This document shows, piece by piece, positions 1-41,339 of a stretch of 42,848 bases of DNA. The notes below the pieces were generated by a model. The model saw nothing but the letters and a program-made list of their open reading frames with translations, was not told where the DNA came from and did not search any database. Position 1 is the stretch's first letter. Every line of letters starts with the position of its first letter. The stretch lies in UHGV virus genome UHGV-0210678; one strand, given 5' to 3'. The translations under genes were made by a program, and so were the position numbers. The DNA comes from a virus.

Positions 1-399
1 ATGGCATCTTCGGGAATTGGGAACCGTTTAAAAGAATTACGAAATATGCAAGGTAAGACACAAGATGAGGTTGCAAAATCAATTGGTATCAGTAGAGCTC
101 GATATTCACATTTAGAAAACGAACGTAACGAACCCGATAATGAACTACTAAAACTTCTTGCTAGCTATTATGAAGTATCGACTGACTATCTTCTTGGAAA
201 TAGTGAAAAAAGTCATAAATCTCCAGACTGGGCTACCGAGGCAGATCGTATTGATTTAGATAAGTTGCTCCAATCCAATACTCCAATGGGTTACGGTGAA
301 ATGAGCATGTCTCCTGAAGACCGTGAAAAAGTCCGCAATGTTATTGAAGGTATTTACTGGGATCGATTGAAAGAGCTTCGAGAAAAAGGAGAAAAGTAG
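1..399 (+). CDS. cpg: CI-like lysogeny repressor (XRE HTH), phi-g1e Cpg-like
   Basis: N-terminal XRE HTH (LKELR..TQDEVAKSIGISRARYSHLENERNEP). 132 aa, no S24 peptidase domain. RBS AAAGGAG at the window end; divergent from an 88-aa cro-like gene across GATAC boxes, as in phi-g1e. Confidence 0.9.
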   Translation: MASSGIGNRLKELRNMQGKTQDEVAKSIGISRARYSHLENERNEPDNELLKLLASYYEVSTDYLLGNSEKSHKSPDWATEADRIDLDKLLQSNTPMGYGEMSMSPEDREKVRNVIEGIYWDRLKELREKGEK

Positions 400-407
400 G
401 TGTATCT

Positions 408-839
408 ATGCGATACGACACGTATCTTAAAGTAGAACAACTTGCAGAATCCTTTGGCACATACGATCCGTTTACAATTTCAGAAAAATTAGGATTCAAA
501 GTTCACTTTAAGGATATTGGTTCAAATGTGGGGTTTTGCACTTCAATATTAGGAACCACAGAGATAATTATTAGTGATAGTCTTCAAGATTCACCTGCTA
601 GGCTTCCGGTTATGGCTCACGAATTATGTCATGGTATTGAGGACACGGCCTGTGTTTCTTGGTACACACTTGGTGACTATCAGAAAAACAGTGCTGAGTA
701 TAAAGCCAATGCCTTTGCATGCCAAGAATTGGCGAAGCTATACGAAGAAGAATACGATGAATTACCTGATAGTTTCAATGCACTAAAAAATGCGTACGGA
801 TTACCAGATGAATTTTTGGAGTTTTTTTCGTTTTCGTAA
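408..839 (+). CDS. ImmA/IrrE-family Zn metallopeptidase (probable repressor-cleaving protease)
   Basis: HExxH motif (AHELCH), downstream E..AN.FA motif, directly after a repressor lacking an autoprotease domain. Confidence 0.88.
   Translation: MRYDTYLKVEQLAESFGTYDPFTISEKLGFKVHFKDIGSNVGFCTSILGTTEIIISDSLQDSPARLPVMAHELCHGIEDTACVSWYTLGDYQKNSAEYKANAFACQELAKLYEEEYDELPDSFNALKNAYGLPDEFLEFFSFS
412..426. promoter_or_regulatory. GATAC-box operator inside the start of the immA-like gene
   Basis: GATAC-GACAC-GTATC, the same 15-bp inverted repeat as those in the switch region. Confidence 0.75.
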
Positions 840-2596: not shown

Positions 2597-2932
2597 ATGA
2601 AAAAGATGAGTATTGGTTTTGTAGCCATTATAGCTATAATTTTCACACTGGCTGGTTGTGGAAACAAAAAGCCTGATTATACTGCTTCAACAGCAGAATC
2701 AGCATTAAATGCTAATAAAGATATTGAGGGAAAAACCGTTCAATTCAAGATCAATAAAGTTGTTCCAAATAGCGCATTTGGTTATAACCTTGAAACTGGC
2801 AAGCACTTGAATTTCGTAAGTTCTGAAAATCCCAAGGTGAATAAAGGTGAAACAGTTACGGTAAAAGTTAAGAAGGCTAGCTCATCTGTGGGCTCTTGGG
2901 TTATCTCATACACAAATCTCAAAAAAAATTAA
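2597..2932 (+). CDS. Small lipoprotein (possible OB-fold)
   Basis: RBS GGAG, ATG at 2597, lipobox LAGC, beta-rich mature region. Confidence 0.75.
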   Translation: MKKMSIGFVAIIAIIFTLAGCGNKKPDYTASTAESALNANKDIEGKTVQFKINKVVPNSAFGYNLETGKHLNFVSSENPKVNKGETVTVKVKKASSSVGSWVISYTNLKKN

Positions 2933-2958
2933 CTAAAAAATGGCCATAGCAACCTATA

Positions 2959-3047
2959 GACCAGATAGGAAGTCATTAAAAGCTAGGAGTTGGGGCTACT
3001 TATAATTCGGGGAATTATTGTTATTGGGGAATAACATATTTTGGAGG
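2959..3047 (+). repeat. ~90-bp cassette leader, copy 2
   Basis: Close direct repeat of 1885-1974, ending at the RBS of the 3055 gene. Confidence 0.85.
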
Positions 3048-3054
3048 GATTACT

Positions 3055-3774
3055 TTGGAAAGCTTTTGCGCAATTATGTTTTTTTTCTCATTGATCGCAA
3101 TAGTATATTTTGCGATTCGTTGGATTATCAATCACTTTATAAAAAATGGTGTTAACAAGCCATACAAAAAATATACTTTTATTTCGCTTATAGCAGCCGT
3201 TCTATTTCTAACAGTAGGAACCATAGCCTCACCAACTCATCGATCAAGTGCAGATCAGACAAGCACTTCTAGCAGAATATCTTCTAAACACAAAAAGAAA
3301 AATACTTCCAATGAGTCAAAAAGAAAGGCTAGTATCAGTAAAGCTAACTCTATTAAAGAGAAGGATTCATCTGAAAGCGCCCTATCAAGCAGCAAAGAAG
3401 AATCTGCAAGTATTGCTGCCTCCAAGTCTGAATCCAAAGAGAATTCAGAGAGTATGGCTAGTTCTGAATCCGAAGCAAGCAAAAAGCAGTCTGAGGCAGA
3501 AAGCTCTTCAATAGCTAAAGCCAGTTCAGAATCATCAGTTGCTAGCTCGTCATCAGCTAAAAAAGCGAGCGAAACAAGTACTACAGACAATGCTTCTTAT
3601 ACACAAAACGGTGGTTGGACTACTGCTGCTTCTGGTATGGTTTTTGTATCAGACTCCAATAAGTACTACACCAGCGTTAAAAATCCAGGTAATTACCAAT
3701 ATATGACCCAGAGTGCTGCTGATAATTCTGGTGCCAAGCCAGCACCACGGGGCAATCAATACGCAAGACCATAA
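3055..3774 (+). CDS. Membrane-anchored surface protein with Ser/Ala/Lys-rich stalk and small C-terminal domain
   Basis: TTG start after GGAGG; two hydrophobic N-terminal segments; long low-complexity linker. Confidence 0.75.
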   Translation: MESFCAIMFFFSLIAIVYFAIRWIINHFIKNGVNKPYKKYTFISLIAAVLFLTVGTIASPTHRSSADQTSTSSRISSKHKKKNTSNESKRKASISKANSIKEKDSSESALSSSKEESASIAASKSESKENSESMASSESEASKKQSEAESSSIAKASSESSVASSSSAKKASETSTTDNASYTQNGGWTTAASGMVFVSDSNKYYTSVKNPGNYQYMTQSAADNSGAKPAPRGNQYARP

Positions 3775-3781
3775 CAGGTCC

Positions 3782-3800
3782 AAGCCCTCGTCGGGGCTTT
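3782..3800 (+). terminator. Hairpin just upstream of tRNA-like element 1
   Basis: AAGCCC-TCGTCG-GGGCTT-T with only a short U-tract. Confidence 0.5.
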
Positions 3801-3803
3801 CAC

Positions 3804-3889
3804 GCGAGCGTAGTTCAACGGTAGAACGGTGCTCCTTTGAATTGCTAACTAGATACTAACAGATGTAGGTTCGACTCCTGCCGCTCGCA
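3804..3889 (+). ncRNA. tRNA-like element 1 (37-nt insert in place of the anticodon/variable arm)
   Basis: Acceptor GCGAGCG/CGCTCGC-A, D arm GTTC-AACGGTA-GAAC, T arm GTAGG-TTCGACT-CCTGC; insert 3828-3864. Confidence 0.85.
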
Positions 3890-3924
3890 TTGTACGTTAA
3901 TAGCAAATAATTATGGAGGCAGCT

Positions 3925-4113
3925 ATGAATATTGATATCACAAAACTATTAGATTGGGGATTGATAGTACTATCTCTTTACTTAGTTGTGGATACACTTC
4001 TGCAAACAAATCATAACAACCCCTACAACATGTTTATAATAACCCTCAAATTAATAGTTGCCATCATCGTGGGATTGTTTGGTATGTACACAACTTTTTA
4101 CAACATCTATTGA
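3925..4113 (+). CDS. 62-aa two-TM membrane protein between tRNA-like elements 1 and 2
   Basis: GGAGG at 3915-3919, ATG at 3925, two hydrophobic helices. Confidence 0.7.
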   Translation: MNIDITKLLDWGLIVLSLYLVVDTLLQTNHNNPYNMFIITLKLIVAIIVGLFGMYTTFYNIY

Positions 4114-4128
4114 AACTTCTGTTAACAC

Positions 4129-4220
4129 GCGAGTGTAGTTCAACGGTAGAACAATTATTTGCACACTTCTCATAGGTCTCACATCCTATATTGATGCAGG
4201 TTCGACTCCTGCCGCTCGCA
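4129..4220 (+). ncRNA. tRNA-like element 2 (43-nt insert)
   Basis: Acceptor GCGAGTG/CGCTCGC-A, D arm identical to element 1, T arm GCAGG-TTCGACT-CCTGC; insert 4153-4195 unrelated to insert 1. Confidence 0.85.
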
Positions 4221-4267
4221 TTGTAACAAATAACCCATACTACCGCTTACTTTAGCACGTACATCAC

Positions 4268-4354
4268 GTGGGCGTAATTCAATGGTAGAATAACGATTTC
4301 AGCCCTTCTCTCTCGTTTGAAATTGTTATGTAGGTTCAATCCCTGCCACCCACT
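4268..4354 (+). ncRNA. tRNA-like element 3 (38-nt insert forming a 10-bp stem with a 16-nt pyrimidine-rich loop)
   Basis: Acceptor GTGGGCG/CACCCAC-T, D arm ATTC/GAAT, T arm GTAGG-TTCAATC-CCTGC; insert 4292-4329. Confidence 0.8.
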
Positions 4355-4377
4355 TTTAAAAGAAAGAAGGTAAGATT

Positions 4378-4554
4378 ATGGATAAAGATATGTCGAAATA
4401 TGAACTCATAGATAACATTACTAATGACTTAACCTCTTTTATTAATCTGTATGCTTTCGTTTATCTTACAAAAGATAGCTACTCAAGGAAAGAATGTGGC
4501 CGCATAATCCAAGGAATGGAAAGAGATATGGTTGATCGTCTTAAGCAAAAATAA
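4378..4554 (+). CDS. 58-aa hypothetical protein (MDKDMSKYEL...RLKQK), absent from the ORF track
   Basis: RBS AGAAAGAAGG at 4361-4370, ATG 4378, TAA 4552-4554; fills the gap between element 3 and tRNA-Gly. Confidence 0.65.
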   Translation: MDKDMSKYELIDNITNDLTSFINLYAFVYLTKDSYSRKECGRIIQGMERDMVDRLKQK

Positions 4555-4611
4555 TTGTAGGTACATTCTAATTAACTGTTGAGCCGACCAAAACCCATTG
4601 TTGGCTCTTAT

Positions 4612-4682
4612 GCGAGTGTAGTTTAGTGGTAAAACGACAGCCTTCCAAGCTGTAGTCGCGGGTCCGATTCCCGTCACTCGCT
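4612..4682 (+). tRNA. tRNA-Gly(TCC), T-loop variant TCCGA, no encoded CCA
   Basis: Full cloverleaf: GCGAGTG/CACTCGC-T, anticodon stem ACAGC/GCTGT with loop CT-TCC-AA. Confidence 0.9.
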
Positions 4683-4742
4683 TTAGACCATCATTAACAG
4701 TCAAAAATTCAGGAAAACAAAAAGTATCGGAGGAGTCTAACA

Positions 4743-5606
4743 ATGAGTGAACCAGAAGAAGCCACACATAATGCTAAAGTGATTTCGTTTATTAATATGA
4801 AAGGTGGAGTTGGAAAAACAACCCTATGTGTTGGGTTAGGCGAATACTTGGCTAAGTTTAAAAACAAACGAATATTATTTGTAGATATGGATCCTCAATT
4901 CAATACAACTCAATCTATTATGGACTTATTTGACTTAACAGACAAATACATGAACGATTTCAGAACGAGCAGAAGCATTCGTCAGATATTTAAAGATACA
5001 CAAACAATTTCAGAAATTCCTACGCTTCCTACTTTAGCCGATCTTGCTATTGATCTACATTCTAATGCTCAAGAACCTAATATGAGCATTATATGTGGCT
5101 CTATAGACTTAATAAAAGATGATGACAGCAGGAAGTCAAAATTTAAGCGTCTGCATAAATTTTTAAAAACTAAAGATGTTATTGATAATTTTGACTACGT
5201 ATTTATCGATTGCCCGCCTACAATTTCTTTTTATACCGATTCTGCACTATTTGCATCCGACTACTATATAGTACCAACAAAAATAGATCGTTATTCTACA
5301 TTAGGTGTCAGTTTACTATATAATGTTATTAAACAACTTGAGTTTGATGAAGATACAACGTTAAAAAGCCTAGGAATTATTTATACAAATGTTCCAAACG
5401 AGACAACTCAAAAGTCTAATAAAATACGTGATATTTTTGAAGAAGCTGATTTTGTAAGCGAATTAGGGTTATTTAAAAATGTTACACATCAAGTTCCTGA
5501 TTTAATGTTTGGCAAACAGGGCAATATATCATCTCACTATAAAAAGTCTAGAGATGACATGAAATTAATAGCAACAGAATTTTTAACTAAATTTGGAGAT
5601 GAATAA
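4743..5606 (+). CDS. ParA/Soj-family ATPase
   Basis: Deviant Walker A KGGVGKT, A' motif VDMDPQ, Walker B FIDCPP. Confidence 0.9.
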   Translation: MSEPEEATHNAKVISFINMKGGVGKTTLCVGLGEYLAKFKNKRILFVDMDPQFNTTQSIMDLFDLTDKYMNDFRTSRSIRQIFKDTQTISEIPTLPTLADLAIDLHSNAQEPNMSIICGSIDLIKDDDSRKSKFKRLHKFLKTKDVIDNFDYVFIDCPPTISFYTDSALFASDYYIVPTKIDRYSTLGVSLLYNVIKQLEFDEDTTLKSLGIIYTNVPNETTQKSNKIRDIFEEADFVSELGLFKNVTHQVPDLMFGKQGNISSHYKKSRDDMKLIATEFLTKFGDE

Positions 5607-6811: not shown

Positions 6812-7933
6812 ATGTCAGTAACCAAACTTAATAATGGTAAATGGCAAGCCCGTGTCTCTTATAAAGATGATGACGGTAACTATAAGTCGGTTACTCATTT
6901 AGAAAAGCGCAAAACTGACGCTGTTGAGTGGGAAACTAAAACTAAGAATGCTCTGCTGGAAGGTGCTGACTTATCACGTAGTACCGAGAGTCTAAAGCAT
7001 TACTTTCTTGATTGGATCAGAATTTACAAAACTGACGGTGTATCGCGTCATACTCACGAGCTATATATGGGCAACTGGCGCCACGTCTCTGCCTATTTTA
7101 AGGATAAACCTATGAGCGCAATTAAACGTCCAGATTACCAGAAGTTCCTGAATGAATTTGGCCGCAGTCATGGAATTGCCACATCTCACAAGCTTCATCA
7201 ACAAGTACACACTGCAATCAAGGACGCCGTAGCTGATGGCATTCTAAAACGAGACTTTGCTTACAAGGCACACGTCACTGGACGCCCTCCTAAGCCCGTA
7301 GAGGAAAAGTATTTGACGTTGTCCGATTATCAGAAGCTACGTAAATACCTCATTAAAACAGCTGACTATGACCACATGACTATGCTGATGATGCTGTTTC
7401 AACTAGAAACTGGAACCAGGTTCGAGGAGGCTGCTGGTCTAACGTGGGATAATTTGGATTTGAATAATGGAATAGTTCACATTAAACAGCAGTGGGACGC
7501 CCGTAGACAGACTTTTCGTCCAACTAAGGGAAATGGACAGGCCGATGGAGATATAACCATAGGACCCGCCTACTGTCGTTTTATGAGGAGCTATCGTAAT
7601 GCGCAGAAAGATTATTTAGAATTACACGAAATGAAGAATCCTAAGAACCTCGTATTTTGGTCCAAACTAGGAAAAATAGTGGGCAATGGGAATGCAAACG
7701 AAGAGCTAGGACGTATTTGTAACCGTCTAAAGATCAACAAAGTTACAACACACGCCATGAGGCACACACACGCTTCGATTCTTATCCTAAATCATGAGTC
7801 CCTTCCCTATGTTCAACATCGCCTTCGACATCAAAAACTAGAAACGACCGTTAACACCTACGTCCATCTTATTGAAGAAGAAAACGGCGTGTCAGATAAG
7901 AAGGCTACCGAGCTAATGGACGAAGGATTTTAA
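6812..7933 (+). CDS. int: Tyrosine integrase
   Basis: N-terminal arm-binding region; catalytic R (TGTRFEE), HAMRHT, and terminal H..Y (LRHQKLETTVNTY). Confidence 0.95.
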   Translation: MSVTKLNNGKWQARVSYKDDDGNYKSVTHLEKRKTDAVEWETKTKNALLEGADLSRSTESLKHYFLDWIRIYKTDGVSRHTHELYMGNWRHVSAYFKDKPMSAIKRPDYQKFLNEFGRSHGIATSHKLHQQVHTAIKDAVADGILKRDFAYKAHVTGRPPKPVEEKYLTLSDYQKLRKYLIKTADYDHMTMLMMLFQLETGTRFEEAAGLTWDNLDLNNGIVHIKQQWDARRQTFRPTKGNGQADGDITIGPAYCRFMRSYRNAQKDYLELHEMKNPKNLVFWSKLGKIVGNGNANEELGRICNRLKINKVTTHAMRHTHASILILNHESLPYVQHRLRHQKLETTVNTYVHLIEEENGVSDKKATELMDEGF

Positions 7934-35023: not shown

Positions 35024-35083
35024 TATCGCCGGTAGGACTCGAACCTACATCCAATTGTGGCTTGCCAATTAGCCCACAGCGAT
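35024..35083 (-). ncRNA. tRNA-like element lacking an anticodon arm
   Basis: ATCGCTG-TG-GGCT-AATTGGCA-AGCC-[10 nt]-GTAGG-TTCGAGT-CCTAC-CGGCGAT-A. Confidence 0.75.
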
Positions 35084-35169
35084 ACTCGCATTCAACGGCC
35101 GATGTTAAATACGAAGACTAATGCCGGCGGCAGAGAGGAGCGCATCACCCCTTATAAATCCGCCGGCAA

Positions 35170-39204: not shown

Positions 39205-39293
39205 TTCGCACCTCCTGTCCTTACTAATGGGCCTTTCACCCGTTCGGTGGATTCAGTCACTGCTGCATTCAAGCCAATTCGAATGTCATTTGA

Positions 39294-41255: not shown

Positions 41256-41339
41256 TTAAATTCCAAACCAACTAGCAACCTCATGACGCTTGAACCACAA
41301 TGCCGTTAACGCGCAGCCTACTATTGCTCCTTCAATCAT
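41256..41339 (-). CDS. 27-aa hydrophobic peptide (MIEGAIVGCALTALWF...)
   Basis: AGGAGG RBS, ATG 41339, TAA 41256. Confidence 0.55.
   Translation of the reverse strand: MIEGAIVGCALTALWFKRHEVASWFGI

Follow-up and report, generated by a model that had tools for sequence, protein, structure and literature searches.

tRNA-shaped RNAs with exchangeable inserts in the repressor operon of a Lactiplantibacillus temperate phage, possibly acting as antisense guides

What would a temperate phage do with several RNAs that are folded like transfer RNAs (tRNAs) and that cannot decode? This question is raised by an array of three elements in the virus genome UHGV-0210678, the whole stretch of which (42,848 nucleotides, nt) was analysed and is called the window here. 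Each element keeps the body of a tRNA and carries, in place of the anticodon arm, a long insert that is unrelated to the inserts of its neighbours. We conclude that the elements belong to a real, expressed RNA family, undescribed as far as we have searched, which represents a new chassis for what is probably a known kind of action. The array and the ordinary tRNA gene that follows it are composed as follows.

3804-3889, plus strand: element 1, tRNA scaffold with a 37-nt class-1 insert (3828-3864) that is mostly unstructured and has an anti-Shine-Dalgarno motif near its 5' end
4129-4220, plus strand: element 2, scaffold with a 43-nt class-7 insert (4153-4195), consisting of an open 5' anti-Shine-Dalgarno arm followed by a 5-bp hairpin with an 8-nt loop
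4268-4354, plus strand: element 3, diverged scaffold with a 38-nt class-2 insert (4292-4329) that forms an 11-bp stem with a C/U-rich loop
4612-4682, plus strand: canonical tRNA-Gly(TCC), with 22 nt at the insert position

The coordinates and insert lengths given in an earlier, sequence-only reading of the locus proved exact. Acceptor stem, D arm and T arm, with their conserved loops, are present in the elements. Beyond their inserts, elements 1 and 2 share 96-97% identity, the flanks CAC and TTGTA included. All three compensatory changes that had been read in element 3 are genuine, while a C6.A67 mismatch in its acceptor stem had been overlooked. The claimed resemblance to tRNA-Gly also holds, the 5' half of the scaffold being 74% identical to the downstream tRNA-Gly(TCC), which, judged from the sequence, is likely to be the ancestor of the chassis.

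Automated annotation gave a divided answer. The expectation had been that the elements would be called pseudogenes or be given no isotype; ARAGORN missed elements 2 and 3 and reported element 1 as tRNA-Lys(ttt). All three exceed the threshold of the Rfam tRNA family RF00005, with 48.3, 50.0 and 38.6 bits for elements 1, 2 and 3 as compared to 72 for the tRNA-Gly, the anticodon arm being left unaligned or unpaired. Among the other Rfam families none reached threshold on the elements, and searching at E up to 10 added just chance matches. Of the five anticodon-stem pairs the elements form 4, 2 and 3, respectively, with wrong loops, and the folding z-scores of the whole elements are -2.4, -2.4 and -3.0. 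An identity as transfer-messenger RNA (tmRNA) does not fit, the elements measuring 86-92 nt rather than about 350 nt and ARAGORN reporting no tmRNA. Elsewhere in the window (35024-35118, minus strand) the same program lists a "tRNA-???" beside a tRNA-Asn; its T arm is good and its D arm poor, it can adopt another stable fold, and it lies outside the element family.

The elements are not isolated. One exact scaffold pattern retrieved at least 131 loci from viral contigs, so that a chance origin can be excluded, and further scans extended the collection to 153 distinct elements which share one tRNA-Gly-like scaffold and fall into 21 insert classes, with inserts of 33-50 nt. A relaxed scaffold pattern matched 13 of 401 family genomes and 9 of 22 in the genus of genome G001. 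The earlier proposal of a constant scaffold with exchangeable inserts is supported, as dissimilar insert classes replace one another between identical flanks: 12 classes share a single type of upstream flank, 10 share a single type of downstream flank, and class 1 is combined with 18 types of upstream and 15 types of downstream flank. The scaffold stems are paired in 2415 of 2448 cells, a figure that is inflated because the search patterns and the parser demanded conserved loops and mostly paired stems. The double changes argue better for a kept fold than this raw count does. Among 114 elements, acceptor pair 2 is C-G in 96 and T-A in 10, acceptor pair 6 is C-G in 87 and T-A in 8, and the first D-stem pair is G-C in 106 and A-T in 3, these being counts of sequences rather than of independent events. 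In insert classes 6 and 10 both strands of the basal stem vary with the loop largely kept, and the class-2 insert, the type found in element 3, is invariant across all 39 copies counted.

The elements cannot decode, because a canonical anticodon arm (5-bp stem, 7-nt loop, U33 and a purine at position 37) is present in none of 92 distinct inserts. Element 1, the one called tRNA-Lys, has C at position 33, the remainder of its insert does not fold as a variable arm, and its supposed anticodon differs within class 1. The alternative that the inserts are long variable arms of ordinary tRNAs, or spliced introns, is thus not borne out for this element, and no splicing joint was detected across the class-1 element at a read depth of about 90-120; the sole joint listed is in the tRNA-Gly.

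These reads stem from four raw RNA-seq runs mapped to window positions 2900-5000. Two of them (X20 and X22) yielded no reads, and the two that did (X23 and X24) represent one study of one strain with related prophages; the contig runs X1 and X12 contain element DNA but cannot show RNA ends. Depth over element 1, to which two class-1 alleles contribute, was 121 and 88, as against 15 and 8, and 17 and 19, in neighbouring bins. The molecules start at 3813, which is tRNA position 10, and end at 3888 followed by G (the discriminator), C and adapter. Reads of the host tRNA-Gly start at the same offset (4621), from which we infer that the true 5' end of the element lies upstream, as in a tRNA. In the five-element array of G001, covered by the same runs, reads of the class-4 and class-1 elements extend from position 10 to the acceptor end, whereas for class 5 just the 3' end is seen, at the discriminator. 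For classes 1, 4 and 5 the loose-end consensus shows an extra C at the 3' end; the ends agree in 46-61% across reads, and a CCA beyond this C is not resolved. The genomic base following the discriminator is T in 174 of 174 element-flank types (counted in family sequences, not in the sequenced strain's own DNA), so that the C is never encoded and is most simply explained as an addition by the CCA enzyme. The prediction of discrete tRNA-like RNAs thereby holds, in another strain, for classes 1, 4 and 5 and their untemplated 3' C. In the sequenced strain the element-3 type has a G-to-C change at 4333 which breaks a T-stem pair, and it shows neither enrichment nor discrete ends, a single natural hint that the fold is needed. 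The element-2 type is absent from this strain's reads on the window.

The genetic setting ties the elements to lysogeny functions. The window appears to be an entire temperate phage genome of 42.8 kb, opened at the repressor. The nearest named records for the array region are Lactobacillus phages Sha1 and phig1e, the host phage being a phig1e/Sha1-like Lactiplantibacillus temperate phage with the elements in its repressor operon. The array is on the strand of the repressor, between the genes for a cI-like protein, an ImmA-like protease and DUF5067 lipoproteins and those for a ParA-like protein and the integrase. Elements of class 1 are likewise present in genomes that bear the titles Lactiplantibacillus herbarum and L. 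pingfangensis. A scan for promoters and terminators gave results near chance level. The neighbouring features are these.

1-839, plus strand: repressor-like helix-turn-helix (HTH) protein and ImmA/IrrE-like metalloprotease, at the head of the array operon
3925-4113, plus strand: cargo open reading frame (ORF) of 62 amino acids, hydrophobic, which in relatives follows 8 different insert classes and has no family in Pfam, PADLOC or PHROG
4378-4554, plus strand: cargo ORF of 58 amino acids, phrog_15564 (unknown function); its downstream flank type is the sole one behind class 2
4743-5606: ParA-like ATPase gene, upstream of the integrase
6812-7933, plus strand: integrase

With moderate confidence we take the elements to be tRNA-shelled antisense guides that would block translation initiation, mostly of early lytic genes of this or of competing temperate phages, and so stabilise lysogeny. 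They would be co-transcribed with the repressor operon, as position and strand suggest and as reads flanking the elements are consistent with. Host tRNA enzymes would then excise them and tail the 3' end, in line with the ends and the untemplated C seen for classes 1, 4 and 5, and the tRNA fold would protect the RNA by analogy to an engineered tRNA scaffold. The G-poor insert would pair with Shine-Dalgarno (SD) regions, a step to which a statistical bias points. Recombination in the constant halves of the scaffold would reshuffle guides and cargo genes, which is one way to account for the observed mosaicism. More tentatively, each guide may silence a gene of a rival phage (for example the replication initiator), of a satellite or of the host, the guides being traded by scaffold recombination, which would make the array a natural, reprogrammable RNA-guide array.

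The inserts are biased toward anti-SD pairing. Their cores consist of 35% U, 28% C, 27% A and 11% G, and the mean duplex energy with the host SD is -9.8 kcal/mol, compared with -8.4 and -8.8 for shuffled inserts; among 200 mononucleotide shuffles one attained this pairing, as did one among 200 dinucleotide shuffles. Samples of phage DNA gave -7.0, with 0 of 200 reaching the insert value. In 11 of the 21 classes the reverse complement reads as SD, spacer and start codon, which is matched by 2 of 1000 mononucleotide shuffles. An interpretation of within-class A/G and C/T changes as tolerance of G.U pairs was dropped: these are transitions, accounting for 48 of 61 changes in insert cores, which is not clearly above the background (11 of 11, 11 of 16 and 9 of 22).

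The search for targets concentrated attention on two sites in the phage itself.

38272-39204, minus strand: replication-initiator gene with a leader hairpin at 39229-39241; the loop allele carried here is a poor partner for element 2, a different one in related prophages a good partner (candidate target site)
41256-41339, minus strand: unannotated hydrophobic early ORF of 27 amino acids, the end of which, with the next SD, is the top-ranked phage site of element 1

In element 2, the hairpin loop and 3' arm of the insert show complementarity to one allele of a conserved hairpin that precedes the replication-initiator gene, and the 5' arm of the insert lies over the SD of that gene. The duplex (-35.7) is the best of 1338 prophage start regions in a gapped scan and is reached by 0 of 32 shuffles (two sets of 16, at -29.6 and -29.9); no other candidate from these scans withstood the controls. 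When full folding is considered, the gain by cofolding is -11.4 for the matching allele vs -0.2 for the allele of this phage itself. The matching allele was found at 10 Lactiplantibacillus-type loci among 39 pattern matches. Where leader and array are both in view, class 7 is carried by 0 of 6 phages with the matching allele vs 12 of 35 with two related alleles, and 10 further phages with a fourth allele are also without class 7. On this modelling, the hairpin and SD of the replication-initiator leader in rival prophages are the best candidate target of element 2, although no target is proven. The leader hairpin has a polymorphic 7-nt loop with four alleles (L437-L440, L441-L469), is conserved ahead of initiator genes with five or more unrelated N-termini as well as in a second group of phages that lack arrays, and had no Rfam match at threshold in the window.

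For element 3 the best site is the SD of orf58 in the virulent phage B2 (-29.9, stronger than 6 of 6 shuffles), a borderline candidate that is shared with Gut-P1 and absent from four other homologues. In the 291 start regions of three virulent phages, 5 of 21 classes gave a better duplex than any of their own 3-6 shuffles, which is about the chance rate. Start regions in the phages' own genomes pair better in carriers than in non-carriers for classes 1, 3, 7 and 8 (p<=0.006). No site for elements 1-3 rose above chance in loci extended by 3 kb on either side, and a blastn search of each insert against 50,697 phage and 72,556 plasmid records yielded no target. It recovered the Sha1 copy of the element itself, a single class-1-like match in the same orientation on a plasmid record of Lactiplantibacillus, and matches at E 0.7-9, of which that at 0.7, for element 2, lies inside a prohead-protease coding region.

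Several further candidates were rejected. That classes 1, 3 and 6 converge on the 27-amino-acid early ORF, as first appeared, is unproven, and the idea was dropped because this locus is sticky in shuffles. The ORF itself encodes a hydrophobic-basic peptide ending in WFGI, with a matching short ORF in 89 of 126 loci examined and no Pfam match; its two main sequence types correspond to two lineages of prophages. A "deduced target" pattern for class 3 had 0 matches in viral contigs and hit the start regions of two unrelated surface proteins in 23 genomes. An anti-satellite role would rest on one class-13 match, which was reached by 5 and 21 of 110 shuffles and loses strength in six homologous loci; viral contigs yielded no satellite relatives. 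A satellite-like island (G001:C1 596800-606000; L176, L177) has an integrase, a repressor, a primase, a helicase-like gene and a 124-amino-acid HTH-like gene, all named from protein starts, and homologues of the HTH-like gene occur in 7 of the 23 genomes of the genus. Pairing in cis with the adjacent cargo gene, as by the antitoxin of a type I toxin-antitoxin system, was rejected on the finding that a class's own insert ranks, on average, 11.4 of 20 classes at the start region of the downstream cargo gene (81 pairs).

A considerable body of results weighs against antisense guides with phage targets. In the window's own genome, exact and wobble-aware ungapped scans found no site for elements 1-3 above shuffles; neither was one found above the null within 10 kb on either side in 86 phage sequences, Sha1 and phig1e included, except a match that had been preselected by BLAST. 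Across 2437 host start regions the same elements (classes 1, 7 and 2) remained at null level, in a duplex scan spanning 2.8 of the 3.62 Mb (77%) of the G001 chromosome, and degenerate patterns allowing up to 3 mismatches had no match in five host genomes. The best phage site of element 1 is no better than those of shuffles, and its locus came first in 4 of 33 shuffles. For element 2, the avoidance of self-targeting has p=0.11 and the candidate is not significant across the 21 classes tried. Its 5' arm binds SD sequences generically (rank 28), its 3' arm ranks the replication-initiator leader family first in 1 of 28 shuffles, the start region of another gene fits that arm nearly as well, and guide and leader alleles do not covary. 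The comparison of carriers was null for classes 2, 4, 5, 6, 9 and 20, none being significantly worse, and is confounded by the existence of two phage lineages. The SD-plus-start-codon grammar is borderline when judged by dinucleotide shuffles (52 of 1000). Finally, the RNA evidence comes from one study and one strain, with libraries that look unstranded and were not made for small RNA.

Four other explanations were weighed. The same antisense action might be aimed mainly at host metabolism or stress genes, which we regard as unlikely. It is encouraged by class 6, the loop of which forms an ungapped duplex across the SD and start of host ppsA, paired at 29 of 33 positions, with scores of 20.8-21.8 in four genomes, 16.0 in one and 8.5-13.3 in 13 more distant ones, a match reached by 4 and 6 of 110 shuffles; and by class 15, whose match to the start of a MerR-family gene was reached by 0 of 110 in both nulls. 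However, just 2 of the 21 classes rise above both nulls, with about one expected, the class-15 match is present in G001 and G019 and lost in G014, G018 and G023, and neither class occurs in the window, whose own classes 1, 2 and 7 stay at null level without a near match in five genomes; the limited span of the host scan also bears on this explanation. Next in rank, and improbable in our view, is an action on proteins, the RNAs serving during infection to titrate nucleases, toxins or tRNA-binding factors, either as decoys of tRNA shape or by mimicking the tail of 16S rRNA. The fully kept tRNA elbow and the lack of strong antisense targets would both fit, and a 16S-tail mimic would show the same anti-SD bias, but 21 dissimilar classes with differing structures suit sequence-specific guides better than one protein ligand, and, a weak partial match aside, no defence-system gene was recognised among eight proteins encoded near the array or at other places in the phage.

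Ranked after the decoys, and improbable likewise, is a view of the elements as punctuation or recombination linkers, where tRNA processing would cut the lysogenic transcript into cistrons, the repeats would swap cargo and the inserts would be filler. Processing is indeed seen, the elements alternate with variable cargo genes and have reshuffled flanks, and the transition share in the insert cores is not clearly unlike the background. What filler leaves unexplained is the anti-SD bias, the depletion of G, the loops kept on covarying stems and the invariant class-2 insert; moreover, a plain tRNA would do equally well. An 89-nt leader, present at 1885-1973 and 2959-3047 in two copies that are 87% identical, precedes cargo genes of the lysogeny module, and sequences like it, found after many elements in relatives, may be further recombination linkers. 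By far the least probable are decaying tRNA pseudogenes, unusual decoding tRNAs or intron-containing precursors. The tRNA-Lys call for element 1, the Rfam scores above threshold and the tRNA-Gly-like acceptor stem speak for them, yet they are largely refuted by the missing anticodon arms, by C33, the absent variable-arm fold and the varying "anticodon" of element 1, by the lack of a splice joint over it and, allowing for the selection exerted by the search, by the pairing of the stems.

A role as tRNA-shelled antisense guides would have precedents among phage RNAs. The CI immunity RNA of satellite phage P4 is small, is processed from a constitutive phage transcript and pairs with phage RNA; it is single-copy and pairs with sites on its own transcript, whereas the elements have no own-genome site above the null in the ungapped scan and their inserts do not pair with the adjacent cargo genes. 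The closer parallel is C4 of phages P1 and P7, described as a 77-nt, three-hairpin RNA processed by RNase P, in which the b' loop occludes ribosome-binding sites and the a' loop gives specificity, and which has multi-copy relatives with variable loops in Acinetobacter (PMC5320573). Like C4, the elements are immunity-region RNAs of about 80 nt that combine a constant structure with variable loops and would be cut from a longer transcript by the tRNA-processing machinery; one loop over the ribosome-binding site and another, specific one upstream is also the arrangement predicted for element 2. The elements differ in having a true tRNA chassis with D and T loops, an added 3' C and one large insert replacing the anticodon arm, in forming arrays interleaved with cargo genes in Lactiplantibacillus prophages, and in lacking both a cognate antirepressor target among the sites found and an Rfam C4 match at the gathering threshold or at E up to 10. 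They may, by analogy, act like C4 RNA without being members of the C4 family. Ordinary phage tRNAs (RF00005), such as the tRNA-Gly(TCC) of the window, share with the elements the acceptor, D and T arms, the absence of an encoded CCA and the same register of read starts, and differ from them in possessing an anticodon arm.

In the engineered tRNA scaffold, acceptor stem, D arm and T arm are kept, the anticodon stem-loop serves as the insertion site and the product is recognised by host factors (PMC3753655). The design is identical to that of the elements, with the difference that the scaffold is man-made and carries aptamers or structural RNAs, whereas the elements are natural, phage-borne and diversified. 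The earlier statement that no described family matches stands: we found none in Rfam beyond tRNA, and none in the literature searched, which was covered at abstract level and included few subscription papers.

Members of the family in three other genera (L480, L481 and L483) adjoin insertion sequences, two of them beside an mscL-like gene, and one pair has a class not seen in prophages, which suggests that the family has spread beyond phage. An unrelated tRNA-shaped family of 18 copies was encountered in gut metagenome contigs (L512, L517, L539, L541, L555, L587 and L602); its 38-43-nt anticodon-arm insert has a fixed stem and variable loop length. Two further, unrelated tRNA scaffolds (L549:1490 and L482:1494) have expanded C/U-rich anticodon loops, one of which reads as a full anti-SD sequence, and are possible independent inventions of the same design.

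For annotation, the consequence is that such elements are miscalled as tRNA-Lys, are missed by ARAGORN or, as in the Sha1 record, where no RNA features are annotated, go unlisted. A phage family uses the tRNA fold as a generic, stable carrier of interchangeable RNA, a design that biotechnologists have made by hand. If the inserts are guides, they would add an RNA layer to lysogeny control and to phage-phage conflict in a genus of major importance for fermentation and probiotics, and would offer a ready chassis for antisense knock-down in lactic acid bacteria. If the array is indeed an RNA-guide array, it would constitute a protein-free, multi-target immunity that borrows the tRNA maturation of the host, and polymorphisms in the target loop would be escape alleles.
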